Below the pieces are notes generated by a model. The model saw only the letters and a list, made by a program, of their open reading frames with translations, was not told the origin of the DNA and did no database searches. The position numbers were made by a program, and so were the translations under genes. A stretch of DNA of 57,649 bases, taken from Patescibacteria group bacterium. GTDB lineage: Bacteria > Patescibacteriota > Microgenomatia > Levybacterales > GWA1-39-11. Location of the stretch: NCBI GenBank assembly GCA_035549315.1, contig DASZRC010000038.1, forward strand, positions 1 to 57,649, written 5' to 3'. This document shows, in pieces, positions 4,436 through 57,439 of this stretch; position 1 is the stretch's first letter, and every line of letters starts with the position of its first letter.

Positions 4436-4454
4436 AATGGTTTACAATTAACAT

Positions 4455-5687
4455 ATGGGTTATTTAAGTCATACAATCAAGGGTATAAGTTGGTCCGGGG
4501 CCTTAAGGGTTGCTATTCGAGCTATTTCCGTACTAAGAGTAGTGATTTTGGCAAATCTGCTTAGCCCAAATCAGTTTGGGCTGTTTGGAATTGCAACAAT
4601 TACACAAGCTTTGCTCGAGGTGTTCCTAGAGACGGGTGTTAATGTTTTCTTAATTCAGGAAAAGTCAGATATTAAGAAGTATATTGATTCGGCATGGGTT
4701 GTTTCAATTGTTCGTGGGTTCTTAATGTTTGGAATTTTGGTTTTGGCCACACCATTTATTGCCGGGTTTTTTAAAAACAATGCAGCGATCGGCGTGTTGT
4801 TGTTAATATCCGTTGTTCCGCTTCTCAGAGGCTTCATCAATCCTTCAATCGTTTATTTTCAGAAGGATATAAAGTTTCATAAGGAGTTTGCTTATAGAGT
4901 TGCTCTTTTTGCGGTAGATACTATCTTTACCATTATTTTGGCGTTTCTAACTCACTCTGTTTATAGTATGGTAATTGGTGTAATAGTTTCTGTAATTTTT
5001 GAAATATATATATCGTTTAGATTTGCCAGTCCTAAACCAAAACTTTCATTTAATCCGGATTACATGAAGCTAATTTTCCACAGAGGAAAGTGGGTCACTT
5101 TATTTGGAATATTCAGCTACGTTGCCCAGGAGGGAGATACAATTGCTGTGGGAAGACTTATGAACACAACAGCTTTAGGACAGTACAATATGGCATATAC
5201 CGTTGGTACGCTGCCAATAGAAGCTTCCGATGTAGTAAACCAAGTAGTTTTCCCGGTATATACCAAAATAGCTCACGATAAAGTTAGGTTATTCAACGCC
5301 TTTATGAAAACGACTCTGTTGTTAACTTTTGGAACGGGTTTTATTTCTCTAATAATATTCTTGTTTGCATACCCAATAGTTCAAATTTTAGGCACTCAAT
5401 GGCTACCAATAATACCCGCACTTAAATTAATAGCAATATACGGGGTCTTACGTGCAATATTTGGTTCAGCGTCTGCTTTGTTCCTTGCGGTAGAAAAACA
5501 AAGTTATGTTTCCCTTATGACTTTCTTCAGGGTTTTAGGACTTATTTTGACAATTGTTCCGTTAGTTACAATGTATGGCTTAGTTGGGGCAGCCTATTCT
5601 GTAATTTTTTCAGTAATTATAGAAATTCCAATAATATTATTCTTGATTTCAAAAGTTTTCACCGGTAAAAGTTATACTACCAAATAG
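4455..5687 (+). CDS. oligo/polysaccharide flippase (Wzx/MOP superfamily)
   Basis: 410 aa, ~12 TM. The N-terminus (IKGISWSGALRVAIRAISVLRVVILANLLSPNQFGLFGIA) is typical of polysaccharide biosynthesis/flippase proteins. Confidence 0.7.
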   Translation: MGYLSHTIKGISWSGALRVAIRAISVLRVVILANLLSPNQFGLFGIATITQALLEVFLETGVNVFLIQEKSDIKKYIDSAWVVSIVRGFLMFGILVLATPFIAGFFKNNAAIGVLLLISVVPLLRGFINPSIVYFQKDIKFHKEFAYRVALFAVDTIFTIILAFLTHSVYSMVIGVIVSVIFEIYISFRFASPKPKLSFNPDYMKLIFHRGKWVTLFGIFSYVAQEGDTIAVGRLMNTTALGQYNMAYTVGTLPIEASDVVNQVVFPVYTKIAHDKVRLFNAFMKTTLLLTFGTGFISLIIFLFAYPIVQILGTQWLPIIPALKLIAIYGVLRAIFGSASALFLAVEKQSYVSLMTFFRVLGLILTIVPLVTMYGLVGAAYSVIFSVIIEIPIILFLISKVFTGKSYTTK

Positions 5688-7137: not shown

Positions 7138-7167
7138 GGTAAAAGTTTGGTATCATTGTAGCGAATA

Positions 7168-8901
7168 ATGCCTGTAAAAAAAATCACTAAAACCAAAAAG
7201 AAAAAAAACAAGCAAAGTTTATTTCTTCAACTTATTAATAGGATTAAGAATATAAAATCACAAGAGATATTGGAGTTTATTTTGGCCAACAAAATATTAA
7301 TACTTGTAGTTGGTCTATATGTTTTGTTAATGACTTCAACAATTAGATGGGGTTTACCCAATAATAGCCACCCATTTCCATACTTCATGGATGAATCACA
7401 TCAGGTTCAGGCTGTTAGGACTGTTTTTAAATATGGGACTTCAAACTATCCGCATCAAGAAAATGGACCAATGTTTCACTATATCATCTCCGGTTTTTTG
7501 ATAGCGCCTTTTTATGTAGTTGGCTTAATTAACCCATTTGCTATAAAGTCTGCTATAGCATCTCCTGACCTACAGCAGGCAATATATGTCGCATTTAGAG
7601 GAACCATTATCCTTTTTGGAGCATTATCTATTATTTTAGTTTGGATTCTAGCCAAAATTTTAAAAATTAACGAAAAACTCTCTATACTTTTATTCTCATT
7701 AACTCCAGTGTTTTTAATTGTCAGTGGTTACTTTAAATATGATGTCCCATTTATGTTTTGGACCTTATTGTCAATCGTGCTACTTTTAAAATACAGTAAA
7801 AATCAAAACTCTTTAACTTATTTAATAGCGGGTATCACATCAGCTATGGCATTGTCTACAAAAATTACAGGTATTCCGCTTTTTGTAATTTATATATTTT
7901 CTTTCTTTTATTTCACTCATGACTTTTTTAAAAAAATTTGGACTTTGGTAAAGGGAATTTTGGTATATGCTTTGGTATTTATATTCCTTGGTATACCGGA
8001 CATTATATTTGAAGGAAGGAGTATGAGTGAATATTTATACTACAACATAATTCTGAACCCACAAAATGATAAAACATTATTGTTCGGAGTTTCTCATTTG
8101 GAATATACTTTTGCACAATTAATTCCAACTATCTACGGACACTTTCTGGCAGGCATTGTTTATGTTTCAGTAATTTATTTAGTAATAAAAGTCATTAAAT
8201 ATATTTTAAATAAAAAATTTAATAACATTAAAGAAGAAGCTTATATATTATTAGTGTTGGCAATATTTTCTGTTAGCTTGATCCCGTTATGGGTAATTGC
8301 TGCAAATAGGGCATTAATATTACTCCCTTTTTTAATATGTGTATGCCTAATCTTTATAAGAGATTTGTGCAATAACCTGATTCCTGATTTTAAAAAATTA
8401 CTTGTTGTAGTTATTGTATTTGGAATGATAATGCAGGTTTTTGAAACTTATTCATGGGTCGGTTTAAAATATATCGAAGCTCCGCAAGTCACTGCGTCCA
8501 AATGGCTTGTTCAGAATGTCCCACACGGAGAAACCTTGGGAATAGAAAATATCCCAGTATATGAAATGTTGCCGGATCTGGTTGTAAAAGAGTTTTATGA
8601 AAAGCAATATAACATTCAAAAAAAATATAATTTTAATTATGAAATAATAGGTCCGGATTCAAAGAAACTTCCTAGAGTTATAGTTCTTTCTAATGCAGAA
8701 TTTGAAGATAAATATAGAAGTACATCTCCTAAGAAAGAGTTATTTGAAAATATGAAAAAACAAAACTACAAACTTGTGGCAAGTTTTTCCCCTCCACTTG
8801 ATTATCATAAACTGTTCACAACGGACATAAATTTTGTCATGGTGGGGATGAGCGGAGAACCACTTAATATATCAGTGTATGTTAAATCAAAAAAGTATTA
8901 A
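7168..8901 (+). CDS. ArnT/PMT-like (GT39-like) membrane glycosyltransferase
   Basis: 577 aa, basic N-terminus then multi-TM. The first-loop acidic motif (FMDESHQ) resembles the DE motif of GT-C enzymes. Soluble C-terminal domain. Confidence 0.6.
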   Translation: MPVKKITKTKKKKNKQSLFLQLINRIKNIKSQEILEFILANKILILVVGLYVLLMTSTIRWGLPNNSHPFPYFMDESHQVQAVRTVFKYGTSNYPHQENGPMFHYIISGFLIAPFYVVGLINPFAIKSAIASPDLQQAIYVAFRGTIILFGALSIILVWILAKILKINEKLSILLFSLTPVFLIVSGYFKYDVPFMFWTLLSIVLLLKYSKNQNSLTYLIAGITSAMALSTKITGIPLFVIYIFSFFYFTHDFFKKIWTLVKGILVYALVFIFLGIPDIIFEGRSMSEYLYYNIILNPQNDKTLLFGVSHLEYTFAQLIPTIYGHFLAGIVYVSVIYLVIKVIKYILNKKFNNIKEEAYILLVLAIFSVSLIPLWVIAANRALILLPFLICVCLIFIRDLCNNLIPDFKKLLVVVIVFGMIMQVFETYSWVGLKYIEAPQVTASKWLVQNVPHGETLGIENIPVYEMLPDLVVKEFYEKQYNIQKKYNFNYEIIGPDSKKLPRVIVLSNAEFEDKYRSTSPKKELFENMKKQNYKLVASFSPPLDYHKLFTTDINFVMVGMSGEPLNISVYVKSKKY

Positions 8902-8906
8902 TAATT

Positions 8907-8935
8907 CTGACAAGTAGGCATTAAATTGATATAAT
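8907..8935 (+). promoter_or_regulatory. sigma70-like promoter of the GT4 gene (near-leaderless)
   Basis: CTGACA (8907-8912), 17-nt spacer, TATAAT (8930-8935). ATG lies at 8946, only 10 nt after the -10, and there is no Shine-Dalgarno. Confidence 0.5.
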
Positions 8936-8945
8936 TGCACCACTT

Positions 8946-10043
8946 ATGAAGATAGCTTTTTTTCATGAACTGCCGCAGGGAGGAGCAAGGATCGCTGTTA
9001 ATGAAATTGCTGAAAAATTGAAGAAAAAACATCAGGTAGACCTCTATTTGGTAGATAGTGCCGGGCCATCAAAATCGGAAAGACGTAGTTTTAACAAAAT
9101 TTATTTTAGCAAGTTTATAGATAAAGAGTGGACGGGTAAAGATTGGAGTAGTAGGTTTTATAAAGATACTGTTGAAAGGATCAAGTTATATAAGCTACAT
9201 AAAAGAATCGCACAAAAAATTGATAAGAGAAACTACGATTTTGTTTTTGTAAACGCTTCAAAGTATATTGAGTCGCCTTTTATTTTGAGATTTGTAAAAA
9301 CATACACGGTATTTTATATGCATGATCCACATTTTAGAATTATATATGAACCAATTCTTGATATACCGCAAAACCTAGATTCCCCCAGATATGTATATGA
9401 AAAAATAAATAGGGCAATATTAAAATTACTGGATAAGCAAAATATTTCCAATGCTAACTTATTAATTGCAAACTCTGAATATACTAAAAAGACGGCCCTT
9501 AAGAGTTATGGTAAAAAAAGTGTTACAGGATATTTGGGTGTTGACACTAATTTTTTTAAACCTGCATTTAAAAAAAGGACAATAGATTTATTATATATTG
9601 GTTCAAGAGATGTTCTAGATGGATTTAGATTGCTTAGTGATGCTTTGGATTTAGTTAAATCGCCAATAAGGCTAAAGACTATATTTAAAGAAGACGAATG
9701 GGTAGATAGAGATCATATTAGGGATTTATACAGAAGATCAAAAATGGTAGTTTGTTTTGGAATAAATGAGCCTTTTGGTTTAATTGCAATAGAAGCGATG
9801 GCAAGTGGTGTTCCGGTAATTGCTCTTGACGAAGGGGGTTATAGGGAAACAATCTTAAATAATAAAACCGGATATCTGGTTCCAAGAAATGCGCAAGTAA
9901 TTGCACATAAGATTGATTATCTCCTAAAACATAGTGATAGGGTAGCAAAACTCGGAAGAAAGGGTAGGGAGGTTGCTTTAGATAGATGGTCTTGGAAAAG
10001 GCGAATAAAGGAATTGGAAAAAATATTTTCTACAATTAAATAA
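8946..10043 (+). CDS. GT4-family (GT-B fold) glycosyltransferase
   Basis: 365 aa. C-terminal EX7E-type region (NEPFGLIAIEAMASGVPVIALDEGGYRETI) is typical of GT4/GT1 enzymes. Confidence 0.85.
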   Translation: MKIAFFHELPQGGARIAVNEIAEKLKKKHQVDLYLVDSAGPSKSERRSFNKIYFSKFIDKEWTGKDWSSRFYKDTVERIKLYKLHKRIAQKIDKRNYDFVFVNASKYIESPFILRFVKTYTVFYMHDPHFRIIYEPILDIPQNLDSPRYVYEKINRAILKLLDKQNISNANLLIANSEYTKKTALKSYGKKSVTGYLGVDTNFFKPAFKKRTIDLLYIGSRDVLDGFRLLSDALDLVKSPIRLKTIFKEDEWVDRDHIRDLYRRSKMVVCFGINEPFGLIAIEAMASGVPVIALDEGGYRETILNNKTGYLVPRNAQVIAHKIDYLLKHSDRVAKLGRKGREVALDRWSWKRRIKELEKIFSTIK

Positions 10044-11674
10044 TGTTTAAAAAGATAATTAACAACCTGTATGCTCCTTTTGTTTTTGGATCCGGCCTTT
10101 TTATATATTTGCAGCTACAGATATACAATTTAGGACTAAATTTTAGGGATGAGGGCTTTTCATATCTTAATGCAGTGAGGATATTAAATGGCGACATACC
10201 TTATAGAGATTTTTTCATGACGACTACGCCCGGAAGTTTTTATTTGCTCGCTTTGGCAATAAAAATATTTGGGTTGGCACTTATTGAGGCCAGAATAATA
10301 TATATAGTTTTGGTAGTCATATGTTTGTTTTTTGTAAGCCTCACTTATAAGATTAAACAATTTAATAAATACGTTTTATTAATTGGTTTGGGTCTTATGT
10401 TTTTGGGTCCTAGCGCAATTGCTTCCTATAATATTGGAGCTTTAACACTATCTGTAATATCTTTTTATTTTCTTTCAAAAGGGTTAGATAGGAAAAAAGG
10501 AAAACTAATATTTATTTCCGGATTAGTAATTGGTATTGTGTTTTTATTTAAACAAAGTTACGGGATATGGATAGGCTTAGGATTCTTGTACTTAATATTA
10601 ATTGAAAGATTTAAAAAATTCGGTTTTAAAGACAAATTTATTGCCAACTACATACTTGGAGGGTTGGTTTCTACTGTTCCGTTTTTAATTTACTTATACA
10701 TAAACCATGCCCTTACTCAATTTATATATTATTCAGGAACTTTCTCTAGAATGGTTAAGGCTCACAGGACACCATTCATTTTAAAAAGCTTAATCTCTAT
10801 TCCCCTAATGTATATCATTTTGAAGTATTTCGTTCCTAGGGTATCAAAAAAGCTTATATACATAGCATTATTATTAATATTAATTGCTGCTTTCCTAATA
10901 AACTTTAAATTTGGGATACATTATTTTGAGCTATCAAGAATTTATTACGGATTACTGATATTTTTTCCACTTTTAGCCCTTGCATGGGTAAAGCCAAACA
11001 ATAAAGTTAAAATGATATATAGAGTAGCAATATTTTTGTTAGTGCTCTTTCTGGCAAATGCATCTTCCGGTAGAGAATTGGGGACCGTTATGTGGGTATC
11101 GCCGGTTTTCTTTCCATTAATAATACTCGTAATAGAATATCTTTCAGCCAAATATAAAAAAATAAATATTGGGGTATTTAATTTTGCAGCAACAATATTA
11201 ATATTAATCCAAGCTTTATATTTTTCTTGGAATTCAATAAATCCAAATGGAAGAGTGTACGTATCTTACAAAAAATCCGAATTGAAGTATGAGCTTAGTG
11301 AGCCCCAAGCAAAGGGGATAAAAGTTTCCCATGAGGATAAAAAAGAGTTAGATTACGTTATATCAAAAATAAATAAATACCCTAAGAACAAAAAGTTGCT
11401 ATGTTTTCCTTACTGTCCGTTAATGAGTGTAATAACAAACAGAGATAATACTTCCTATTATAACTTTTTTTATCCGGAAGCATTTCTACCGGAAGACCAA
11501 CCATATGTCATTGATGAGCTTAAAAAAACCAATTCAATAATTGTAATTCAAAAGGTGGGAAAACTAGAGTTGGAGGCAAATCTGGAAGATAAAAGATTTG
11601 GTAAGTTAAAAAAATATTTAATGAGTCACTATAAGAAGGCGTTTGAAACAAAGGACTTCATAGTTTATCAATAG
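10043..11674 (+). CDS. ArnT/PMT-like (GT39-like) membrane glycosyltransferase
   Basis: 543 aa, multi-TM. First-loop motifs RDEGFSYLNA and IPYRDFF. Start overlaps the upstream stop (TAATG). Confidence 0.6.
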   Translation: MFKKIINNLYAPFVFGSGLFIYLQLQIYNLGLNFRDEGFSYLNAVRILNGDIPYRDFFMTTTPGSFYLLALAIKIFGLALIEARIIYIVLVVICLFFVSLTYKIKQFNKYVLLIGLGLMFLGPSAIASYNIGALTLSVISFYFLSKGLDRKKGKLIFISGLVIGIVFLFKQSYGIWIGLGFLYLILIERFKKFGFKDKFIANYILGGLVSTVPFLIYLYINHALTQFIYYSGTFSRMVKAHRTPFILKSLISIPLMYIILKYFVPRVSKKLIYIALLLILIAAFLINFKFGIHYFELSRIYYGLLIFFPLLALAWVKPNNKVKMIYRVAIFLLVLFLANASSGRELGTVMWVSPVFFPLIILVIEYLSAKYKKINIGVFNFAATILILIQALYFSWNSINPNGRVYVSYKKSELKYELSEPQAKGIKVSHEDKKELDYVISKINKYPKNKKLLCFPYCPLMSVITNRDNTSYYNFFYPEAFLPEDQPYVIDELKKTNSIIVIQKVGKLELEANLEDKRFGKLKKYLMSHYKKAFETKDFIVYQ

Positions 11675-11678
11675 GCAT

Positions 11679-13865
11679 ATGAGAAGAGTCGACTTATCAA
11701 TAATTATTGTAAATTACAAAGCCGGGGAAAGTCTATTTAGATGTTTAGATTCAATAGTTTCTTCAGTTAAAGGTGTTGGGTATGAGGTTATAGTTGTTGA
11801 AAATGATATTAATACTAATTTAAGCAAAGAACTTAAGAAATATAAATTTGTAAAGTATATTAGGCCTGATTCCAATCTAGGCTACGGAACAGGTAATAAT
11901 CTGGGGGTTGATCATGCAGAGGGTAAATATGTTTTTATTTTAAACCCAGACACGGAAATTAGAAAAGGAAATGTAAAATTATTGTTAAATAAATTTAAAA
12001 AGCCAAAGGTTGGTTTAGTTGCCCCCATTTTAGTGGATAGTAAAAATAACCCCTATATTTTACAAGGAACAGATAAGCTAAATCCAATTAACGCCGTCTT
12101 CTCTTTATCTATATTAAATAAAGTTTGGCCGAATAACCCCATTGCCAAAAAATATTGGATGAAAGGGTTGGATAGAAGTAAAGATACACTTGTAAAAGTG
12201 GCACCGGGAACTGCATTTCTTATGGAGAGAAAACTATTCAATAATATTGGCGGATTTGATGAAAATTTTTTCTTATATTTTGAGGAGCATGATTTATGTG
12301 ACAGAATTGTTGACAAAGGATACAAAGTATATATAAGCCCAGATTTAGAAGTTTATCACGCATGGGGTTTAAGTACAAAAAAAAATAAAGAATCAAATAC
12401 TTTTTTTTCTAAAAGCCGCTATTATTATTTAAAAAAACATTATGGTTTTCTTCCCGCCCTTTTTACTACGTGGATTTTGAATTTTAATCTGGAATATTTA
12501 ATTTTATTCTCTACTATTGTTCTTGGTACTTTTCTGCGACTTGATAGACCGGGTCTTGCTATATTTATCCAAGATCAGGGGTGGTTCTATTTATCCGCAA
12601 GAAATATGATTTTAACGGGGACCATTCCCTTAGTGGGTATTACGTCTAGTCATACATGGTTGCATCAAGGTGCCTTTTGGACGTATTTACTTGCTCCTTT
12701 TCTTTCAACATTTAATTTTAACCCTTATGCAGGATTTTATTTGGCCGCAATGTTTGGAATTGGTTCAATAGTTCTTACTTATAAAGTAGGTAAGCGATTT
12801 ATTAATAAAAATTTTGGATTACTGGCTGCTGTCTTATATGCAGCATCACCACTAGTCGTAATCCATGAAAGAATGGCTTACCATACTGCTCCCATTTCAT
12901 TTTTTGTACTTCTTTTAATTTATTCACTAAATAAATGGGAAAAGGGTAATGTGTATTTCTTTTCAATCTCAATATTTATAATGTCTATTCTTTATAACTT
13001 GGAGCTAGCAACAGTTGTATTTTGGCCGGTAATAGGGCTTATTTGGCTTATTGGTTTTTACAATAAAAGAAAGTTTGTTCAAGATACATTAGGTAGAAAC
13101 ATTATTTTTCTATCCCTATTTTGTTTGGTGTTGCCCATGGTACCAATTATCCTTTATGATATAAATCATGGATACGTTCAGACCGTTAAGTATGCTGCTT
13201 GGCTTATATATAACCCTCTTACATCATTATTAAAATCAGGGAGCTCTTCCTCATCAGGAATTATCTTTTTTTCTTACTTACATATTCAAAGGATAATTTT
13301 TCTTAAAAGTATATTTCTGTCAATTATTATTTTGTTAGCTTCAATTTTTATAGTTTTTTTGGATGCTATTAAAAAAATCACAAGTTCTGTAGGAATAATA
13401 TTTATTGCAACAGTCATACCAATAGCAGCATATATTGTTAGTAAAACTCCGTCCGAAGCCTATTTGCCCATGCTTTTCCCTGGAATAATTTTGTCTCTTG
13501 CCTACTTTTTTTACAAAATATTCCTTTTGAATAATAAATTGGCCATTGTTTTGGTTGTAATATTTGTAGGCGTTAATGCATATCAAGTCTATAGCAATGA
13601 CTATCTTATAGAAAAACCTTACGGATACGGTTTACCAATAGAAAAAAGAATAGAGACTTCTAAAAAGATTATTAGCCTTACTCATGGTAAACCCTATAAT
13701 CTAATCTACCAATCGTCCGGAAAGCAAATTAAATATTCAACAGAAAACTACGAATATCTTACGGCATGGTTAGGTAATCCGCCTGTATCTTATCCGGTGA
13801 GCGCAAAAATAGTTGTATTTGAAGGAGAGCATGGTATTAAACTTACTAGCCTTGATGTAAAATAA
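11679..13865 (+). CDS. GT2 domain fused to an ArnT/PMT-like polytopic membrane domain
   Basis: 728 aa. The N-terminal 260 aa form a GT2 domain (LSIIIVNYKAGE, ILNPDTE, GGFDENFFLYFEEHDLCDR). The C-terminal ~460 aa are multi-TM with IQDQGWFYLSARN. Same architecture as the 1..2298 protein. Confidence 0.8.
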   Translation: MRRVDLSIIIVNYKAGESLFRCLDSIVSSVKGVGYEVIVVENDINTNLSKELKKYKFVKYIRPDSNLGYGTGNNLGVDHAEGKYVFILNPDTEIRKGNVKLLLNKFKKPKVGLVAPILVDSKNNPYILQGTDKLNPINAVFSLSILNKVWPNNPIAKKYWMKGLDRSKDTLVKVAPGTAFLMERKLFNNIGGFDENFFLYFEEHDLCDRIVDKGYKVYISPDLEVYHAWGLSTKKNKESNTFFSKSRYYYLKKHYGFLPALFTTWILNFNLEYLILFSTIVLGTFLRLDRPGLAIFIQDQGWFYLSARNMILTGTIPLVGITSSHTWLHQGAFWTYLLAPFLSTFNFNPYAGFYLAAMFGIGSIVLTYKVGKRFINKNFGLLAAVLYAASPLVVIHERMAYHTAPISFFVLLLIYSLNKWEKGNVYFFSISIFIMSILYNLELATVVFWPVIGLIWLIGFYNKRKFVQDTLGRNIIFLSLFCLVLPMVPIILYDINHGYVQTVKYAAWLIYNPLTSLLKSGSSSSSGIIFFSYLHIQRIIFLKSIFLSIIILLASIFIVFLDAIKKITSSVGIIFIATVIPIAAYIVSKTPSEAYLPMLFPGIILSLAYFFYKIFLLNNKLAIVLVVIFVGVNAYQVYSNDYLIEKPYGYGLPIEKRIETSKKIISLTHGKPYNLIYQSSGKQIKYSTENYEYLTAWLGNPPVSYPVSAKIVVFEGEHGIKLTSLDVK

Positions 13866-13869
13866 ACAG

Positions 13870-14619
13870 ATGACCGATATTAGCGTTGTAATTCTTACTA
13901 AAAATGAAGAAAAGAATATATATGACTGCTTAGAGTCTGTAAAAGATTTTGATGAAATAGTTGTCATAGATGATAACTCAACAGATAGAACCGTTGAAGT
14001 AGTAAAAAGCTTCAAAGGTAAAGCAACAAGTGTTTATAGACGAGAAATGAACGGAGATTTTTCAACTCAAAGAAACTTTGGTTTGGATAAATCTAAAAAT
14101 GATTGGGTTTTATTTATTGATGCAGATGAAAGAGTGTCAAAAACACTTTTTAATGAGATTCAAAATATTTCCCAATCAGAATATAAAGGGTTTAGGATTA
14201 GACGAGCAGATTATATGTGGGGAAAAGAGTTAAAACACGGTGAGACGGGGAATATAAAATTGGTTAGACTGGGAGTAAAGAAAAGCGGAAAATGGACTGG
14301 AAAAGTTCATGAGGTATGGAATATAGATGGAAAAATAGGAATGCTTGATGGAAAGATAGACCATTATCCTCACCAAACAATAAAGGAATTTATAAAAGAA
14401 ATAGATTTCTATTCAACACTTAGGGCAGAAGAGCTTAATCATAAAAGAGAAAAAGTAGGATTCTTCCAAATAATTTTTTATACAAAAATAAAATTTATTC
14501 AGAATTATTTTATAAAGCTTGGAGTTCTAGACGGGATAGGCGGCTTTATAAGTGCGCTCATGATGAGTTTTCATTCATTTTTGGTTAGATCAAAGTTGTA
14601 TTTCCTCAATAATAAATGA
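13870..14619 (+). CDS. GT2-family glycosyltransferase (small, soluble)
   Basis: 249 aa. ISVVILTKNEEKNI, VIDDNSTDRT and a DxD motif (FIDADE). Confidence 0.85.
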   Translation: MTDISVVILTKNEEKNIYDCLESVKDFDEIVVIDDNSTDRTVEVVKSFKGKATSVYRREMNGDFSTQRNFGLDKSKNDWVLFIDADERVSKTLFNEIQNISQSEYKGFRIRRADYMWGKELKHGETGNIKLVRLGVKKSGKWTGKVHEVWNIDGKIGMLDGKIDHYPHQTIKEFIKEIDFYSTLRAEELNHKREKVGFFQIIFYTKIKFIQNYFIKLGVLDGIGGFISALMMSFHSFLVRSKLYFLNNK

Positions 14620-14692
14620 AAAGTAAGTTACTGATAGGATTATTTGTTATCTATGCTACTTTAATTCTCCTAGACTATCTAATATATATACT

Positions 14693-16255
14693 TTGCAGAG
14701 CCAAAATATGTTTGAATTTGCCGTACTAGTAGGAATTTACTCTTATTTTCTTTTTTTACTTGGATTATTGGGTAGTCTGGGTATTTTTCCTTTGACTGCT
14801 TCTTTGATAGTTTTTCTAACTGTTTCTTTAACTATTTTTATAAGAAATCACCCATTATTAAAACTAATTAATTTTGTAAATAAATTAGCTACGGTAGAAA
14901 AAGCGGCTCTTTTTTTATTGGTAGTGCTTATGCTAATAAACCTAATTGGAGCATTGGGACCGGAAACTGCATTTGATTCATTGTGGTACCACCTTACAAT
15001 TCCAAAAGTGTATCTTGCTAATCAAAAGATTTTTTATATTACCGGCGGATTGCTCTATTACTCAGTTATGCCAAAACTGATTGATATTATATATATTCCG
15101 TTTATTGCATTAAAAATTGATATTCTAACAAAACTTTTGAGTTTTTTGTTTTCGATACTTACGGTGTTTGTTATCTATAGGACAGCAAGATTATTTTTTA
15201 CAAAACACATAGCATTAATAACCGTATTGGTTTTTTACTCTAATTTGGTGGTATCGTGGGAAGCGACTACATCATATATAGATTTTGGTAGAACCTTCTT
15301 TGAGTCTTTGGCAGTTTATTATTTAATAATTTTTCTAAATAAGAAAAAAAATGAGCAGTTGATTAAGATTGGAATTGCAGAAGGCTTGTCTATTTCGTCA
15401 AAAATTTTAGCGGTAGGATCACTTATTCCACTTTTTCTGACACTGTTGTGGGACAGAATTAAACTTAAAAAAATCTTTCTATGCATGCTAATTAGCGTAC
15501 TAATTCCTTTACCATGGTTTATTTTTGCTTATGTCTCCACCGGCAATCTATTTTATCCATTTTTTAGCCCGTTGTTTCAAACCTACCCCGGCGTAGATTT
15601 ATTAGCTCCTGTAAAGCTTTTAAGAAGCCCGGATCCTATTTCTCCAATATATTTTATTTCTCTTCCCTTGATAGTTCTATATTATAAAAAATACAAACCA
15701 ATATATAAAAAAACTGTTATATATGCTTTTTTAACTTTTCTTGTTTGGTGGATATCTCCACAAACCGGTGGTGGAAGATTTTTGATGCCATACCTACCCG
15801 TTTATTCAATTTTGGTTGGGGGCGTTATCTTTTATTCAAGTAAAAATGTTGCTAAATATCTGACTTTGGTTGTAGTTTTTATTACCGTTGTTACAATCTT
15901 TTATAGATTAGGGGCAAATATGAGATATCTGCCTGTTGTTTTAGGAAAAGAGAGCAGACAAGAGTATCTTTCAAAGAACCTGAAATATGATTTTGGGGAT
16001 TTTTACGACACAGATGGGTATTTTTCTAAACATATTACACAAAAAGATGTAGTTTTAACGTACAATATTCACAACTTGTATTATATTGATTTTCCATTTA
16101 TAGACTCCACATGGATTAAAAAAGGAGATAAATTTAATTATCTCTTGGTAAGAGGAAACATACCAACAAGGTTTAAAAAATGGAAATTAGTTTATAAAAA
16201 CAATAAAACAAACATTAAACTTTATTCTGGCGGAGGTAAAATGTGGGAATACTAG
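14693..16255 (+). CDS. polytopic membrane protein, putative GT-C-like glycosyltransferase
   Basis: 520 aa multi-TM. The listed start is TTG, and the first ATG is at 14708. The true N-terminus may be the 14616 ORF in another frame (see findings). Confidence 0.55.
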   Translation: MQSQNMFEFAVLVGIYSYFLFLLGLLGSLGIFPLTASLIVFLTVSLTIFIRNHPLLKLINFVNKLATVEKAALFLLVVLMLINLIGALGPETAFDSLWYHLTIPKVYLANQKIFYITGGLLYYSVMPKLIDIIYIPFIALKIDILTKLLSFLFSILTVFVIYRTARLFFTKHIALITVLVFYSNLVVSWEATTSYIDFGRTFFESLAVYYLIIFLNKKKNEQLIKIGIAEGLSISSKILAVGSLIPLFLTLLWDRIKLKKIFLCMLISVLIPLPWFIFAYVSTGNLFYPFFSPLFQTYPGVDLLAPVKLLRSPDPISPIYFISLPLIVLYYKKYKPIYKKTVIYAFLTFLVWWISPQTGGGRFLMPYLPVYSILVGGVIFYSSKNVAKYLTLVVVFITVVTIFYRLGANMRYLPVVLGKESRQEYLSKNLKYDFGDFYDTDGYFSKHITQKDVVLTYNIHNLYYIDFPFIDSTWIKKGDKFNYLLVRGNIPTRFKKWKLVYKNNKTNIKLYSGGGKMWEY

Positions 16256-50091: not shown

Positions 50092-50165
50092 GGCGCCATC
50101 GTCTAGTGGCCTAGGACACAGGGCTTTCATCCCTGTAATCATGGGTTCGAATCCCATTGGCGTCA
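50092..50165 (+). tRNA. tRNA-Glu (anticodon TTC), CCA not encoded
   Basis: Hand-folded: acceptor GGCGCCA/TGGCGTC, anticodon arm CAGGG-CTTTCAT-CCCTG, T arm ATGGG-TTCGAAT-CCCAT. Confidence 0.9.
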
Positions 50166-50166
50166 C

Positions 50167-50506
50167 TAACCTTCGCTAAAGCTACGGTTAGCAAGCAATG
50201 TATTATACGTACGTTCTTAGGAATAATAAAACGAATCGTTATTACATAGGCTATACTCCTGATTTGAAAAACCGGCTGATGAAACACAAGTCGGGAAAAG
50301 TCTTATCTACTAAATCAAATTTAAACTACGAACTGGAATGGTATTGTGCTTTCAAAACAAAGGGTCAGGCATTATCTTTCGAACAATACTTAAAAACAGG
50401 TTCTGGTGTAGCATTTATGAAAAAAAGGTTTTTCAAATCTGAAGCTTTTGCGAAGTTAGAATCAATGGGAAGTCCTGCTACTCGTAGCTCAAAGAGCGAA
50501 GTGTAG
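50167..50506 (+). mobile_element. GIY-YIG mini-cassette (340 bp) bracketed by a duplicated tRNA-Glu 3' end
   Basis: This interval lies between the two copies of tcccattggcgtcac (50152-50166 and 50507-50521). It holds a hairpin (CTAACC 50166-50171 / GGTTAG 50186-50191) and one GIY-YIG ORF. Confidence 0.6.
50198..50506 (+). CDS. small GIY-YIG nuclease-family protein
   Basis: 102 aa. MYYTYVLRNNKTNRYYIGYTPDLKNRLMKHKSG...FEQYLKTGSGVAFMKKRF, with GIY...YIG, the conserved Arg and Glu. The stop TAG abuts the second tRNA-derived repeat. Confidence 0.85.
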   Translation: MYYTYVLRNNKTNRYYIGYTPDLKNRLMKHKSGKVLSTKSNLNYELEWYCAFKTKGQALSFEQYLKTGSGVAFMKKRFFKSEAFAKLESMGSPATRSSKSEV

Positions 50507-50521
50507 TCCCATTGGCGTCAC
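50507..50521 (+). repeat. orphan copy of the 3' end of tRNA-Glu (last T-loop base, T-stem 3' strand, acceptor 3' strand, discriminator, +1 nt)
   Basis: tcccattggcgtcac is identical to 50152-50166. Confidence 0.85.
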
Positions 50522-50642
50522 CTAAAGGAATGCTCAGGCATGGGGTTCGAACCTTTTGAACGTGAATTGTTTGTAAGATTTCTTCATCAGTATTTTCATC
50601 TTTAATTACCACCCTCATTTTGGTTCGATATTCCATTAGGGT
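50520..50642 (-). repeat. ~123-nt repeat, copy A, containing a 46-codon ORF (50478..50618, minus)
   Basis: Matches 52237-52358. The plus-strand block acctaaaggaatgctca...cgtgaa has 42/47 identical positions. The block cctcatt(t)tggttcRatattccattagggt differs by 1 indel and 1 mismatch. Minus-strand ORF: MRVVIKDENTDEEILQTIHVQKVRTPCLSIPLGDANGTTLRSLSYE. Confidence 0.6.
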
Positions 50643-50649
50643 TCTGAAT

Positions 50650-52116
50650 TTACAGAGCATTTGCAGCTTTAAATTCTGCAGCAGCCAAATATGCAGTTAA
50701 TTTTGGTCTATATAGGTGATTAAATTGTTCATTATCTTTAAAGTTATCAATTGCGCTCCTTGCCAAATCTAAATAACCATTGTCACACAATTCATGAATT
50801 GCGATTGTTAAGATTTGCATTTTCCCATCATCTATAAATTCGGCCCAATCATATTTATCCATAGGAAATTCCATAACTTTTTTAACAGCAAATCTGTAGG
50901 CTTCTGTTGCATCAAAACCTGCTGCATCAAGCGCTTTCGCAATAGTTAAGGATCCTGTCATCGGATCAGTCTCCGACATGGGAACACCGAAAATTGTCCA
51001 TCTATTCTCCTCGCTTGCCGCGTTCCAAGCTTTCTTAAAATGATCATTGGCACTATTAAAATCTCCTGATTTTTGCGATGCTTCAGCCAAATCTGCATGA
51101 ATAGAAATAAAATCTATTAATCCAACAGTTTTTTTGTCATCGTCACTTCTCGCACCAATATTCAATTCTGATAACTCATCATCTATTTCTTGAAATGGTC
51201 TATGTTGTTGTGCATTTATTACGGCTTGTCTCGCACGAGCTCTATAGTAGATTGTTCCACCAACTTCTTTAGTAACTTGCACAGCATCGTCTGCTAGGCC
51301 TCTTGAAAGTTGCTCTTGTGCTATATCATTGACCGTATACCAATAGTAGTGTGAATTATCTTCTCTGAAAACTTCAGCTATGTCTAAAGCTTTAGCAAAA
51401 AGTCCAGCCTTAGTATATGCCTGCATCAATCTATAATACATTCCTTCAAAACCAAACAATACAATTCTATTCAATGCTTCACTACGAGAAATAGCTGTAT
51501 TTTTACCTTGAGATATTTGAAAATTGTATTCATCAGAAAATTGCATTCTTTGAACAGCTAACGTATTTTCTGCTTTTGTAAATAAACCCAAGGCTTCTTC
51601 ATCTTTTCCAGCATCTGCAAACACACTTCCAATATTGATATCTTGCCATGTGTTTCTAGCTAGATCTTTTCGTCCATACGCATCAAGATGTTGAATATTT
51701 GAAAGATGCCTGACTTTCTGAAGTATTTCCGATTGGTCTTGCCCTCTTTGCCTTTGCAACCAGAGTAAATAAGCATAATCGTTTAAAGGATCTTTTACTT
51801 GGGGCAAAATTCGACCTACAACCTCATCATTACCCAACACTGCGTTAACCCTTACCAATCCGCTCATTGATATTTGTCTTTCATCTTCATGAATGGAATT
51901 TTCTAATCTAAATTCAGCGCTACGCAAAAGAGGAACCGCTGAGAATCCGCTTGACTCCATCCTGTAAGCTGTTTCTACCAGATCTTGAATTTGAAAATTC
52001 GCACCCATATTATGAAAGAGAGATACTGCTTGTCTAAAATGTTGCTGAGAAAAATTTCTTTCTTGAGAAGAAACCACTTCGCTAGGATTTTTGAGTCGAT
52101 ATTCTATTTCTGCCAT
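50650..52116 (-). CDS. hypothetical cytoplasmic alpha-helical-repeat (TPR-like) protein
   Basis: 488-aa ORF, no signal peptide or TM helix. Helix-rich composition with repeated A/L/Y-rich segments. No family recognised. Confidence 0.6.
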   Translation of the reverse strand: MAEIEYRLKNPSEVVSSQERNFSQQHFRQAVSLFHNMGANFQIQDLVETAYRMESSGFSAVPLLRSAEFRLENSIHEDERQISMSGLVRVNAVLGNDEVVGRILPQVKDPLNDYAYLLWLQRQRGQDQSEILQKVRHLSNIQHLDAYGRKDLARNTWQDINIGSVFADAGKDEEALGLFTKAENTLAVQRMQFSDEYNFQISQGKNTAISRSEALNRIVLFGFEGMYYRLMQAYTKAGLFAKALDIAEVFREDNSHYYWYTVNDIAQEQLSRGLADDAVQVTKEVGGTIYYRARARQAVINAQQHRPFQEIDDELSELNIGARSDDDKKTVGLIDFISIHADLAEASQKSGDFNSANDHFKKAWNAASEENRWTIFGVPMSETDPMTGSLTIAKALDAAGFDATEAYRFAVKKVMEFPMDKYDWAEFIDDGKMQILTIAIHELCDNGYLDLARSAIDNFKDNEQFNHLYRPKLTAYLAAAEFKAANAL

Positions 52117-52127
52117 AAGATAGGTTG

Positions 52128-52155
52128 ATTATACAATCTAGAGTTATATATTCAA
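52128..52155 (-). promoter_or_regulatory. sigma70-like promoter of the 488-aa gene
   Basis: On the minus strand: TTGAAT (52155-52150), 16-nt spacer, TATAAT (52133-52128). The ATG at 52116 is 11 nt downstream. Confidence 0.5.
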
Positions 52156-52236
52156 TTCTTCCTGATTTTCTTTGTACGCTTCAATTAACCTACCCTAGAA
52201 GATTAAGTGTGGTTCGAACTGTTCGCCCCTAGGGTT

Positions 52237-52358
52237 ACCTAAAGGAATGCTCACGCATGGTGTTCGAACCACTTGAGCGTGAAAGTTGAGTAGATAATTT
52301 TTGTTTTCTTCTTCATGGTTAATCTCTAGCCTCATTTGGTTCAATATTCCATTAGGGT
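52237..52358 (-). repeat. ~122-nt repeat, copy B, containing a 46-codon ORF (52195..52335, minus)
   Basis: See copy A. Minus-strand ORF: MRLEINHEEENKNYLLNFHAQVVRTPCVSIPLGNPRGEQFEPHLIF. It has the same length as the copy A ORF and aligns without gaps. Confidence 0.6.
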
Positions 52359-52406
52359 AATAAACCGATAATTATTGATTTTCAATTTTAATACCTTCTT
52401 TCATTA

Positions 52407-53579
52407 TTATTTTGTGGATTTGTTTGTACGGAGCGGTGCAAACGTGAAAGTTTTAAGAATCTGACTAATAGTTGGGTCCGAATCTGGATTAGATACCGGA
52501 ATATTAATTGTAACTATTTTCTGGCTACTGCTTAAAACAATAATATATCCTCGTGAGCCTTCTCCTAGAGCAGGATATATCAGACCTGGATAACCGGCGA
52601 TAGCAACACCGTCATAAACACCGAACTGATTATGTACATCTTGATGCGCATAAGCAGGATTGTTTACAGTTTGTCTATTTATATATTCATCTGTTGTCTC
52701 TGTTGAATTTATTGTGTTGAAATAAACATACTTTGTAGGTAGCTGTATATCTTTCTCCCCATTTACTGTAAAACTTTTTCCAACAGTCTGAATAGAAGTA
52801 GGATCGTAGAATTGTTCTGCGCTATCCGATTTTTGTATAGTCCATGAATTTGGATAATAGATTGAAAAACCATCACCATTAAATTTTTTCCAATTTGCCC
52901 AGGTTGAATCGTAGCTTGAGGTATCCGCTGTTTTTTTGTCTGTAAATTTAAAATTTGAAATCACTGTTTTTTGGAAGGAGGATATTGATCCGTCCGAGTT
53001 TGAATTAAATTCTATTTCGTATGTATAATTATTTTTATTTGTTACAAAATCCAAATAATAAAAGACCATATTTGGAGCGTAACAAGCCATTTGGCACGGG
53101 TGCGAAGAGAGAAAAACGTTCCACCTTTGATTATTATAGGTAATTGTTCCCAACGGTTTTCCCAATTCTACCTCAATTTTCTGTAGATTAGTTAGGAGAA
53201 CCCTAACATAAATTTCTTTGTTCGAAGAATCTACAACAGTCATAAAGTCTTGCGCCGGGTCTGGGTATGTAATTGATCCCCCCGCGACATTTGGTGGATA
53301 CTTAAACTCGTAATTATATTTATCACTAAAATACGTCTTCCAATTCGAAGTATCTATGATGGGAGAAATTGAATTTCCTAATTTAGGAGGGAATATTCTT
53401 GGAATGAAAAACCATCCTGCAAATACCGATATTGGAACGATCAATAAGATAAGCGGGATCTTCACGAGTAATGGGAGTTTAAATTTTGGTTTTGCTTTCA
53501 AAGTTTCTGGAACAACGATAGTTTCTTCAGGAATTGAATTTTCAATTTGTGTTTGAATTTTAATATCATCATTATCCAT
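52407..53579 (-). CDS. membrane-anchored extracytoplasmic protein with two similar beta-rich modules
   Basis: 390 aa. TM anchor (LLVKIPLILLIVPISVFAGWFFI). Repeated W-K-x-Y/F...Y-x-F-x-YP modules (NWKTYFSDKYNYEFKYPPN, NWKKFNGDGFSIYYPNSW). Confidence 0.65.
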   Translation of the reverse strand: MDNDDIKIQTQIENSIPEETIVVPETLKAKPKFKLPLLVKIPLILLIVPISVFAGWFFIPRIFPPKLGNSISPIIDTSNWKTYFSDKYNYEFKYPPNVAGGSITYPDPAQDFMTVVDSSNKEIYVRVLLTNLQKIEVELGKPLGTITYNNQRWNVFLSSHPCQMACYAPNMVFYYLDFVTNKNNYTYEIEFNSNSDGSISSFQKTVISNFKFTDKKTADTSSYDSTWANWKKFNGDGFSIYYPNSWTIQKSDSAEQFYDPTSIQTVGKSFTVNGEKDIQLPTKYVYFNTINSTETTDEYINRQTVNNPAYAHQDVHNQFGVYDGVAIAGYPGLIYPALGEGSRGYIIVLSSSQKIVTINIPVSNPDSDPTISQILKTFTFAPLRTNKSTK

Positions 53580-53738
53580 ATTGATTAGTATTTGCTATTT
53601 AAATTTCTGTGTCAACTGTCCGGGTATTTATCTTCCGTACGTTCGTAAGATGAAATTAGAGTTGCCCAAAGCTTAATAGTGGGTTCGAACTGAGGATAGT
53701 TAAGGTCACACTTCCAGAAATTGAAGAAAGGAGAAGTT

Positions 53739-55216: not shown

Positions 55217-56983
55217 CTATTTTACGGTTACAGATTTTGCAAGGTTGCGTGGTTTGTCAGGGTCATTATTGCCTTTTGCTAAAGCCAAATAATATCCCAA
55301 TAGATGAGCTACGGTTACGTGAGGTAGTAGAGTTGCTTCTTCTATATCATCAGTCTCTAGGAAATCATCAAATACTTCATTATTTATTGGTCCAATACCT
55401 ATTATATGTCCACCTCTTGCTTTGATTTCTTGTGCATTGGACACTATTTCTTCATAAGTTTCATCGTTTGGTGCAAATACAATACACGGTGTCCCCTTTT
55501 CTATCAAAGCAATAACTCCATGTTTTAATTCTCCACCCGGAAAAGCTTCAGCGTGAATATAAGTGGCCTCTTTTATTTTTAAGGTAGCTTCTAAAGCGGC
55601 AGTGTAGGAAACACCCCTTCCAATAATATAAATATGCTCTTTATTCTTAAGTTTTTCAGCTACCTCTTTTACCATATCAATATATGTTTCACCCAAAATT
55701 TTTGCTACATTCTCAGCGGCTTTTGTTAATAAATCTTGACCTTTCTTTGCTTTGTCTGCTAGAGCGTAGGATGTAAGAAGAACTGCCGCGATCATAGCGC
55801 TAAAGCTTTTGGTTGCAACTACTGCCTTTTCTGGCCCGGTTTCAAGTAGAAAATTAAAATCGGAAAGTCTGTATAGGGTAGAACCTAATACGTTTACGAT
55901 CGAGGCAATTTTTGCGCCTTTCTCTTTTTTTGCCTTAGATGTTGGTTCAATTACATCAATTGATTCACCACTTTGTGAAATTGGAATCACAAGTGTTTGT
56001 GGGATTATAAAATCTTCTATATATTTAAATTCGGATCCTACAGCAAAATTGACATGTTTTTTTGCTACTTTTGAAAAAAGATATGTGGCAGCCGTTGCTG
56101 CGTAAGAAGCTGAACCACAGGCAATTAAGAATGTTCCGGTAGCCTCATCAATTAGATGTGCCAAAGTTTTTGCGCTTGATATTCCGTTTAATGCAATATT
56201 TCTTATGATCTTGGGCTCTTCGTGAATTTCTTTAATAAAGAAATGTTCATATTTACCAAGCTCGGCGTCTTCAAAAGTCCATTTTATTGTTTCAATTTTT
56301 GCTTTTACTTCTTTACCGCTATCTAACTTAAGCAATTTTAATTCTTTACCCAAGATGACCATATGATGGTCTTCTAAGAAAAGGACATCCTTGGTGTATT
56401 GTAAAATGCCGGCTGCATCTGAAGCTATAAAATATTCATCTTTTCCTACGCCAACAACAAGTGGTGAGCCATTTTTTGCAGCAATTACTTCAGAGGATGC
56501 GCTATTGACTACAACAATAGCATTCATACCGTGTAGGCTATTAAACGCATTTCTAACTGCTGTTGGAAAGTTCTCGGTTTTAAGATTCTCTTCTATAAGA
56601 TGTACGGCAACTTCCGTGTCAGTTTCTGATAAAAACTTGTGGCCCTTTTTGATAAGCTCGTTTCTTAATTCAAGAAAGTTTTCAATTATTCCATTGTGAA
56701 TAAGGGCAATTTGCTTTGTGCAATCAAGATGAGGATGAGCATTTTCATTGGTAACTCCACCGTGTGTTGCCCATCTTGTATGACCTATTCCTAGGTTACT
56801 ATTTGGTAAAATTGTGCTTGCTTGGCCAATTTTTCCAGTGTGTTTCTCGGTATCCAATTTATCACCTTTTTTAACAGCGATTCCCCACGAGTCATAGCCT
56901 CTATATTCTAGAGTCTTAAGACCTTTTAGGACTATATTAGCGGCATCATCACGATGCCCAACGTATGCAAATATTCCGCACAT
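55217..56983 (-). CDS. glmS: glutamine--fructose-6-phosphate aminotransferase
   Basis: 588 aa. N-terminal MCGIFAYVG (Ntn Cys), two SIS domains, C-terminal LAKSVTVK. Confidence 0.97.
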   Translation of the reverse strand: MCGIFAYVGHRDDAANIVLKGLKTLEYRGYDSWGIAVKKGDKLDTEKHTGKIGQASTILPNSNLGIGHTRWATHGGVTNENAHPHLDCTKQIALIHNGIIENFLELRNELIKKGHKFLSETDTEVAVHLIEENLKTENFPTAVRNAFNSLHGMNAIVVVNSASSEVIAAKNGSPLVVGVGKDEYFIASDAAGILQYTKDVLFLEDHHMVILGKELKLLKLDSGKEVKAKIETIKWTFEDAELGKYEHFFIKEIHEEPKIIRNIALNGISSAKTLAHLIDEATGTFLIACGSASYAATAATYLFSKVAKKHVNFAVGSEFKYIEDFIIPQTLVIPISQSGESIDVIEPTSKAKKEKGAKIASIVNVLGSTLYRLSDFNFLLETGPEKAVVATKSFSAMIAAVLLTSYALADKAKKGQDLLTKAAENVAKILGETYIDMVKEVAEKLKNKEHIYIIGRGVSYTAALEATLKIKEATYIHAEAFPGGELKHGVIALIEKGTPCIVFAPNDETYEEIVSNAQEIKARGGHIIGIGPINNEVFDDFLETDDIEEATLLPHVTVAHLLGYYLALAKGNNDPDKPRNLAKSVTVK

Positions 56984-57129
56984 AAGTATTAAGAATCAAT
57001 TACCAAGCATCAATTTTCAAACCAATTAAGTAATGTTTAATTAAATAATTCTTAATTTTAGTTTGGTTTGATTAATTGGAATTTGGTTAATTAATCAGGT
57101 AGTTCTTGAAGAAATAAAGTGGAAATTGT

Positions 57130-57318
57130 TATTAATTCCTCTAGTTTTGTATTATTACAAAGTTTAAGAATTAAATTATGGTTGACAATACAACCAGAGG
57201 GTTTCCGCAGATGCTCTAGGTGGTTGACCTAGGTTCGATTGGCACTTTCATTAACTGAATGTACCCCCTCTTCCTCGTATTCCCGAATGAAAACTATCAT
57301 CGGGACCACGCGCTATAT
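57130..57318 (-). ncRNA. glmS ribozyme: probable glmS ribozyme in the glmS 5' leader
   Basis: The minus strand reads A|GCGCG (57314/57313). P1 hairpin is CCCGAUGA-UAGUUU-UCAUUCGGG, followed by AAUACGAGGAAGAGGGGGU. Then come AUCGAA, the hairpin CUAGGU-CAACC-ACCUAG, and CUGCGGAAACCCUC (pairs with GAGGG). A P3-like hairpin GGUUG-UAUUGU-CAACC and a long P4-like hairpin (57134-57172) follow. Order and sequences resemble the consensus AGCGCC...GACGAGG...AUCGAA...GGCGGAUGCC. Confidence 0.6.
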
Positions 57319-57439
57319 CAAATATGATTCCACTTTTTCAAAGAACAGCCTATATTTTATCAACAGTTATCTTGTTTTGCAAATCAGTGCCTGGTTTGCT
57401 TCCTAAAGTTGCCTAAATAGAGTAAAATAAGTACTGCCC

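Follow-up and report, generated by a model that had tools for sequence, protein, structure and literature searches.

Paired repeats behind two orphan genes at a Levybacteria tRNA-Glu gene as probable attachment arms of integrase-less serine-recombinase cassettes

Introduction

What are two related repeats, each lying just behind an orphan gene and each holding a conserved 46-codon open reading frame (ORF), doing next to a tRNA-Glu gene? The question is raised by a stretch of 57,649 nucleotides (the window, to which coordinates refer unless another contig is named), which is contig C38 of a 1.12-Mb genome with 37% G+C; the source organism is a very small-genome, Levybacteria-like bacterium of the Candidate Phyla Radiation (CPR; Patescibacteria) from soil. 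An initial annotation of the window had proposed that the repeats hold either a small acidic peptide with a conserved core or a structured RNA. Our analysis points elsewhere: the repeats are probably the integrase-proximal attachment arms (each a P arm plus a crossover core) of two integrase-less cassettes stemming from elements that target the 3' end of tRNA-Glu by means of large serine recombinases (LSRs) of a clade found in Levybacteria. In what follows, G000 denotes the source genome, other G-numbers denote related genomes, and L-numbers denote loci or contigs, L033 being a metagenome contig.

Results

Two repeats and their relatives

The repeats, delimited by pairwise and genome alignments, both lie on the minus strand, copy A at 50517..50645 (widest given span, 50515-50650) and copy B at 52234..52361. 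In a search of the whole genome, they shared 76% identity across 126 nt (E 6.9e-18), and no third copy was found in G000, the next-best matches being 14 to 19 nt long (E 1.6). Much of what had been described from the letters was borne out: local blocks of 50 nt (88% identity) and 24 nt (96%) agree with near-identical ends around a diverged center, and copy A begins 7 to 8 nt past the stop of a 488-aa gene and copy B ~49 nt past that of a 390-aa gene, against the 8 and 49 nt given earlier. The alignment likewise reproduced the gap-free pair of minus-strand 46-codon ORFs (50481..50618 in copy A and 52198..52335 in copy B), as well as the single 1-nt indel upstream of the ATG. A simple tandem duplication of a gene together with its tail was considered and rejected, since the genes beside the two repeats are unrelated (best BLASTP E between the 488-aa and 390-aa proteins, 0.11).

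The window stretch is also contained, as contigs, in soil-metagenome DNA runs of one study (n = 3), and no RNA run is listed as containing it. Those contigs showed no joints, which counts neither for nor against recombination. Run X1 contains a further contig (2151 nt, depth ~10), which aligns to the end of the 488-aa gene, though with 7 differences; it departs from the reference at 50613, where the variable center of copy A begins (window 50613-50761), and represents either a strain variant or another junction.

A BLASTN-type search for more copies had been proposed. We searched 49 family genomes and 151 order genomes with BLAST and with a covariance model derived from six copies and added one metagenome pattern scan, which brought the total to 12 copies in 8 genomes or contigs, 10 of them outside G000 and none further within it: two each in G000, G009, G097, and L033 and one each in G007, G011, G014, and G053. 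One locus with the pattern at its contig start (L032) was excluded, and another (L034), which scored the same as G014, was treated as an identical sequence and left uncounted. A protein word-index search with a profile of seven peptides matched only the ORFs of copy B and of one G009 copy (G009a), and a contig pattern scan of the genomes returned only the G014 and G053 records. BLAST matches of 27 to 34 nt in G036, G019, G013, and G002 lie in the A-rich center.

All 12 copies terminate in a GGTGAC-like core, and the sequence that follows this core falls into three kinds. An intact, convergent tRNA-Glu gene follows in two copies (G011 and G014), a 3' fragment of tRNA-Glu follows in four (copy A, G053, G007, and the second L033 copy), and a conserved leader, here called P', follows in five (copy B, G009a, G009b, and one copy each of L033 and G097, namely, L033_1 and G097b); the remaining copy, G097a, is unassigned. 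Shorter junction variants were seen at L024 (6383-6480), L026 (4170-4250), and L043 (G007:C35, 250-342); these carry a TTCGAAC-like motif 1 at their start and reach the core after ~50 to 65 nt, without the VRTPC block. The tRNA-Glu gene of G007 is itself preceded by such a shortened form.

Integrase-like sequence in the conserved core

The origin of the repeats is indicated by what their conserved reading frame continues into. The frame of the block VRTPC..IPLG does not end at the core but reads on through GGTGAC, as Gly-Asp (G-D), into the leader, and all 14 leaders encode (G/C)DPxxxxFEPxLxxWxxxLxxxY. Differences among these leaders at codon positions 1, 2, and 3 number 39, 24, and 56, and 34 of 86 codon differences are synonymous in frame, compared with 19 of 85 and 7 of 86 out of frame. 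When a profile of block plus P' was searched against 1.84e9 proteins, 34 proteins were matched at E<=1e-3, mostly small ORFs. In four of them (P0017, P0011, P0013, and P0032), block and tail directly follow the LSR C-terminal motif ...SIFPSGM.W.YPG.SN..ISP.YQSI, and a profile designated A5 matched P0017 at E 5.6e-5 among the same 1.84e9 proteins and at 1.5e-12 in a set of 51. The relatives of P0017 (232 aa) are 452 to 542 aa long (best E 2e-74); among the matches listed, 50 of 50 carry PF00239 and PF07508 and 42 of 50 carry PF13408 too. Judged by these similarities, P0017 reads as the C-terminal part of an LSR.

Integrase genes of the clade supply the other half of the picture. The encoded LSRs end in ...YQSIR......VPFGDP, with GGTGAC coding for G-D, and the residues after PFGDP are the same in kind as the tail of the G014 copy, that is, antisense tRNA-Glu. 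Across nine family loci, the 3' end of the LSR gene overlaps a convergent tRNA-Glu gene in five and a tRNA-Pro gene in two, the last two loci being cut by contig ends; in this clade, the tRNA junction lies within the last codons of the integrase gene. In addition, the G058 integrase gene and the copies of the genus are identical over the 15 nt that end with the core, and at the start of the repeat, ATCGAACCAA is the counterpart of the YPG(I/C)SN(R/Q) codons of the integrase, read one frame off. A leader was found at the far side of two of the three testable integrase-bearing elements, ~17.4 kb from the integrase in G043 and ~14 kb from it in G060; in G016, there was none within 20 kb of the integrase.

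By these sequences, the conserved peptide core is a fossil of the LSR C terminus, with the attachment core inside the former reading frame. Both 46-codon ORFs in the window are truncated remnants of a longer frame: that of copy A is fused to tRNA antisense, its tail after GD being the antisense of a tRNA-Glu fragment and of the end of a GIY-YIG gene, while that of copy B extends from the P arm across the core into the first part of P', where a TAG cuts it short. The remark in the initial annotation that the C terminus of peptide A derives from tRNA sequence was correct and proved to be the key clue to this origin.

Organization of the cassette array

With the leader recognized, the locus resolves into repeating units, each consisting of the core, the leader (P'), a promoter-like site, an orphan gene, and the repeat (P arm). 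In the window, the order is flank, core, a first cassette (P', 390-aa gene, and P arm), core, a second cassette (P', 488-aa gene, and P arm), core, and tRNA-Glu, and cores of GTGAC type are found at the left array end, at both repeats (copies B and A), and at the tRNA-Glu 3' end.

The left end of the array is formed by a TGTGAC core and the P' leader of cassette 1 (53615..53710, minus strand), which stops at a TGA within the TTGACA box discussed below. This P', a relic of the natural integrase tail, encodes CD....FEP..W...L...Y behind a GTGAC core at 53705-53709 and, as the leftmost one of the array, has no preceding P arm; greA lies upstream. The promoter-like site TTGACA-17-AATACT (53587..53615, minus strand), just upstream of the 390-aa gene, is assigned by position only, the number of such sites in the region being not above that in shuffled sequences. 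The 390-aa gene itself (52407..53579, minus strand), the cargo of cassette 1, begins with an N-terminal membrane anchor, as judged by eye, and has one relative in G011 and two in G009, each with the same leader and P arm; the P arm of cassette 1 is copy B.

The core of copy B, GGTAAC (52234-52239), opens the P' leader of cassette 2 (52144..52239, minus strand), which runs from the core through TTCGAACC (52211-52218) and in which the TAG at 52195-52197 is a TGG in G007. The cargo of cassette 2, the 488-aa gene (50650..52116, minus strand), showed weak, sub-threshold TPR matches only. Including leader and P arm, this cassette is 87% identical between G000 and G007 over 1735 nt; the homology starts at or near the core behind copy B and stops near the core of copy A, which is the P arm of cassette 2. 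There, the GGTGAC core (50517-50522) is fused to tRNA-Glu-derived sequence. Copy A is an attR-type P-core-tRNA junction, and copy B is a P-core-P' junction that joins two stacked cassettes.

We also considered whether the flank after copy B could be a displaced fragment of a host tRNA. This was rejected: the flank is 5 nt too long for a tRNA, an in-frame peptide is kept in 14 leaders, and the flank goes together with the gene that lies downstream of it.

The genes upstream of the element copies belong to three unrelated families. PADLOC gave no matches for the 390-aa, 488-aa, or G014 cassette gene, and neither of the two window cargo genes had a Pfam match above cutoff. What precedes each cassette gene is constant in kind, namely, the core, 18 nt, TTCGAAyC, a conserved stretch, and the promoter-like site. 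In both window cassettes (52116-52155 and 53579-53615), a -10-like hexamer lies ~8 to 12 nt from the ATG and no Shine-Dalgarno sequence is visible, which suggests that the cassette genes might be transcribed into leaderless or near-leaderless mRNAs.

Attachment core, half-sites, and a possible mechanism

An inserted element thus shows, on one side, the P arm, the core, and then antisense tRNA-Glu and, at the far end, core plus P', which encodes the tail natural to the integrase; this layout is that of the attL and attR ends of an integrated element, with integrase-less derivatives stacked beside it. The most complete example is found in G009, where a full LSR gene lies directly next to tRNA-Glu, at the end of the contig, and the island contains two cassette-P junctions. 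From the LSR upstream, the order is a replication-relaxation gene, two cassette-plus-repeat units, a reverse transcriptase, an IS1595 transposase, and a lone leader. This island spans L023 (G009:C11) 2666-15266; its two cassette genes are paralogous and membrane anchored, and its reverse transcriptase has defense-type (DRT-like) PADLOC matches. Another cassette with a readable cargo was seen in the metagenome (L033, 870-2149, minus strand), where a histidine-kinase-like ATPase is paired with a DUF4325 STAS-like protein; the ATPase gave weak Pfam matches and a PADLOC match to the N-terminal part of DrmA, and the two genes may be a defense pair.

Spacing distinguishes the element side of the site from the host side. 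From the GT of the core to TTCGAAyC, all 14 P' arms measure 18 nt, but tRNA-Glu measures 13 nt (eight of nine genes by regular expression, the ninth having the same geometry). For the integrase LI, PMC3783163 describes the ZD (zinc-ribbon) motif of attB as lying 5 bp nearer the center than that of attP, and the 18-nt versus 13-nt spacing observed here is consistent, by analogy, with that shift. TTCGAAyC may be a half-site recognition motif read by the LSR.

In the proposed mechanism, the LSR would exchange strands within the GTGAC core, between a P-core-P' site and the 3' end of tRNA-Glu, and such an exchange would leave tRNA-Glu intact. Cassettes without an integrase could have been moved in trans, now or formerly, much as staphylococcal cassette chromosome (SCC) elements lacking ccr are. 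For G000, both the assembly of the tandem array and the enzyme responsible are things that we infer.

Alternative explanations

Could the junction ORF instead be a gene in its own right? Such a small protein would combine a new N terminus (MRL plus ~19 free residues) with the integrase C-terminal tail, would exist in full length only where two cassettes meet (64 aa in G009) or in a circular cassette, and might modulate recombination, both window copies being C-terminally altered forms. The earlier view of the core as coding holds insofar as its conservation is codon-like: within the block (codons 23-34), differences at codon positions 1, 2, and 3 among seven open copies number 66, 24, and 87, and coding-type substitution is seen in P' as well. 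That signal is better accounted for by descent from an LSR 3' end, which contains the attachment core, than by a free-standing acidic peptide. Seven of the 12 copies, which include every copy with 90-nt spacing, run from an ATG over 90 nt to a CCY codon without a stop; in mononucleotide shuffles, the 90-nt frame was open in 13 to 22% of trials per copy, and we estimate the chance of so many open frames at ~3e-5, assuming about six independent lineages. The spacer measures 57 or 56 nt in every one of the 12 copies, and ORFs of this kind were predicted by gene callers in 34 clusters. The intactness of the frame that had been proposed as a check nevertheless came out divided, since the other five copies carry a frameshift or stops: G097a, G097b, L033_1, and L033_2 have TTG, TCG, TTG, or GTG at the start position, a length of 89 nt, and two to four in-frame stops, and G009b is broken by a 1-nt deletion, with its central part still open. 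A frame open in all copies and under purifying selection was thus not found. The broken copies, too, preserve the spacing and the "MRL" nucleotides, which are therefore constrained as DNA. Moreover, the 21 codons before the core (codons 2-22) show no amino acid constraint, with 216, 190, and 219 differences by codon position and 32 synonymous versus 316 nonsynonymous codon differences, no better than in other frames; G007 has lost the P-C residues by a compensated shift, P' arms that have no start codon at all are conserved just as well, there is no family in Pfam or PHROGs, and AlphaFold2 modeled the 64-aa junction ORF poorly (mean pLDDT, 58.9; pTM, 0.28), with only the tail helix reaching ~80. 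Weighing both sides, we consider a real small-protein gene rather unlikely. A broader version of the same idea strikes us as distinctly improbable, namely, a serine-integrase-driven, integron-like capture platform at the Levybacteria tRNA-Glu gene, with single-gene cassettes under their own promoters, stacked by recombination at a core within the integrase frame, in which the 90-nt junction form encodes a maintained microprotein that senses or controls the recombination state. If it were true, that microprotein would consist of a free N terminus and the integrase C-terminal tail and would be whole only at cassette-cassette junctions or in excised circles.

A structured RNA, whether it serves the upstream gene (as a 3' untranslated region element or a terminator) or forms a tRNA-Glu trailer, has hardly any credibility left. 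A long imperfect hairpin of 22 pairs can be drawn in six copies of the genus, and the single-sequence folds of the minus strand are slightly below those of shuffles (z, -1.75 and -1.31), but RNAalifold found 0 consensus pairs over the 12 copies. When imposed on the alignment, the genus hairpin pairs 74.1% of cells versus 72.8% in shuffles (56 of 500 shuffles reached at least this value), and a two-sided change occurs in only 1 of the 22 pairs among the six genus copies. The covarying stem suggested earlier, GTTCA/TGAGC, dissolved on inspection into a one-sided G-U to G-C change that is lost in distant copies. Nor did the repeats match Rfam, the gathering-level matches in the window being four tRNAs and a glmS ribozyme only, and a terminator role was dropped, as no terminator-like site (G+C-rich stem plus T run) exists in either copy A or copy B. 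The imperfect inverted repeat, with its 14-nt bulge, had also suggested a folded site of the integron attC type. The consensus ends of attC sites are R''/R', RYYYAAC...GTTRRRY; alignment inspection revealed no such pair at the repeat ends, and together with the lack of conserved pairing this led us to abandon the attC-like site. More generally, the repeat might be the site or end of another mobile system, whether an attC used by IntI, a miniature inverted-repeat transposable element (MITE), or a sequence spread by homologous recombination alone. The cassette-like layout with conserved ends and a variable center, 3' of orphan genes and in one orientation, would suit such a system, and G000 has two tyrosine recombinases elsewhere. 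These two PF00589 genes are on other contigs, however, with no recombinase gene beside the array; the hairpin is not conserved, the presence of only two copies in G000 is unlike a MITE, the ends are not mutually inverted in distant members, and the sequence is related to the 3' ends of LSR genes. We therefore regard an origin in another mobile system as highly improbable.

The reading of the repeats as LSR attachment arms has to contend with several findings of its own. A comparison of the peptide profile with an LSR alignment by hhalign was weak (E 0.0082; probability, 4.9%; 20 columns), and so were block-only matches to integrated LSRs (best E 0.04), so that the link to LSRs rests on the sequences in which body, block, and tail are contiguous. 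Relative to the corresponding part of genuine integrase genes, the P arm has ~40 nt more, and no integrase counterpart was detectable for its first ~18 codons. Open frames in 7 of 12 copies are beyond chance and are not explained by a pure relic model. Neither a left half-site nor a central dinucleotide could be defined. In G000, no LSR of this clade was found (0 matches at E<=1e-20), and there is consequently no sign that its cassettes can still move; its only LSR is a distant one, a 535-aa open frame (contig C22:57-1675) that runs antisense into tRNA-Gln (1604-1675) in the same layout as in the tRNA-Glu clade. Finally, LSRs are described (PMC3783163) as recombining only attP with attB. Renewed insertion at a tRNA junction that is already occupied, or the origin of the P-core-P' junctions, would then require another route, and stacking would stay unexplained unless these LSRs act like the staphylococcal Ccr recombinases.

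The tRNA-Glu locus and other tRNA genes

The attachment target itself (the attB side), an intact tRNA-Glu(UUC) gene, lies at 50092..50166 (plus strand). An orphan 15-nt copy of its 3' end (50507..50521, plus strand), a duplicate of 50152-50166, abuts copy A, and between the intact gene and copy A is an ORF for a 102-aa GIY-YIG nuclease (50198..50506, plus strand). The ~340-nt insert with this ORF (window 50167-50521) is thus bounded by the 15-nt duplication of the tRNA 3' end; its insertion is later than the copy A junction and separates copy A from the intact tRNA-Glu gene. In G053, the same layout was seen, with a GIY-YIG ORF (L026, 5651-5977, minus strand) beside an 18-nt tRNA fragment, and the G000 and G053 nucleases showed no close kinship at E<1e-5. 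The GIY-YIG insert appears to represent another type of insertion into this tRNA gene, distinct from the first.

The flank of tRNA-Glu differs in almost every genome of the genus, and the site is free of such elements in G003, G010, G002, and G005. A motif of ~24 nt resembling CTGAGCGAGCGTAGCGAGTCGAAG stands directly 3' of tRNA-Glu in L038 (G004) and L041 (G008); it resembles both the flank of tRNA-Glu(CUC) in G000 (C26:4290-4316) and the window stretch between tRNA-Glu and the GIY-YIG ORF. Elsewhere in G000, the 3' end of tRNA-Met is repeated ~100 nt downstream (C6:4460-4650), with a tyrosine recombinase gene at C6:7252-7701, and part of tRNA-Cys is repeated 85 nt away (C29:13150-13320), which suggests further insertions at tRNA genes. 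The glmS ribozyme mentioned above (57121-57325, minus strand; 56.3 bits, above gathering) is located upstream of the glmS gene (55217-56983).

Discussion

How does this locus compare with known ways of collecting genes at one site? Integron cassettes form one-gene, same-orientation arrays, in which each cassette carries a recombination-site element of about 130 nt. The orphan one-gene cassettes described here, likewise in one orientation and each ending in a conserved element of ~130 nt, resemble them at first sight; in contrast to integrons, there is no IntI, there are no attC consensus ends and no conserved fold, each cassette has its own promoter-like site, and the element derives from integrase coding sequence. 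A parallel in accretion is offered by streptococcal cis-mobilizable elements (CIMEs), which lack an integrase, are bounded by att sites, and are stacked beside an autonomous element at the same tRNA gene; these depend on tyrosine integrases. The G009 island resembles such CIME accretion at a tRNA gene. Regarding phages, the known serine integrase systems have attP beside int, not within it.

The integrases of LI/A118, phiC31, and Bxb1 are of the same family (PF00239, PF07508, and PF13408) and likewise use short sites, and the motif that here lies 5 bp nearer the core on the tRNA side fits the zinc-ribbon shift described for LI (PMC3783163); pairing of attP with attB only, as presented in the same paper, does not by itself explain tandem arrays. 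Stacking of this sort is also found in the SCC composite islands at rlmH, which include pseudo-SCC elements lacking ccr (PMC13739063; bioRxiv 10.1101/336396). SCC islands share with the present locus the large serine recombinases, insertion at the 3' end of a housekeeping gene, and tandemly stacked elements split by repeated attachment sequences, some of which have no recombinase and carry cargo only. The present locus differs from them in having a tRNA gene of a CPR bacterium as its target, in a core contained within the reading frame of the integrase itself, and in cassettes that are single orphan genes of 1.5 to 1.7 kb, known from sequence alone; the recombinases here are presumably not Ccr, the organisms being different.

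The position of the core, in turn, recalls the "suicidal" tyrosine integrases of archaeal SSV-type (spindle-shaped virus) elements, for which the review PMC8371274 describes an attachment site in the integrase gene that matches a tRNA gene, so that integration partitions the integrase gene and leaves its parts at opposite ends of the element. Those enzymes are tyrosine recombinases, described in that review only in archaea, and are disrupted by the split, whereas the enzyme here is a bacterial serine recombinase of which only the last ~25 to 35 codons are exchanged for tRNA-antisense codons. By analogy, then, the locus appears to work like the SCC-type composite islands of serine recombinases combined with the att-inside-int arrangement of the archaeal tyrosine integrases. 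Literature searches on integrons and attC, on tRNA-Glu cassettes, and on LSRs with tRNA genes in CPR or Patescibacteria yielded no description of such an arrangement for CPR.

These findings hold a warning for the discovery of small ORFs, as a gap-free core with codon-like conservation can be the fossil of the end of a larger gene. They also provide, for a new clade of LSRs, natural pairs of attP-like and attB sites that are clearly marked by their spacing, and they document bacterial serine integrases in which the 3' end of the coding sequence itself contains the attachment core, such that integration would exchange the tail of the enzyme for antisense-tRNA codons; one review reports the att-inside-int arrangement only for archaeal tyrosine integrases (PMC8371274). 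For the organisms themselves, serine-integrase elements and their integrase-less derivatives, stacked at tRNA-Glu, would explain by what route orphan genes come into very small CPR genomes.

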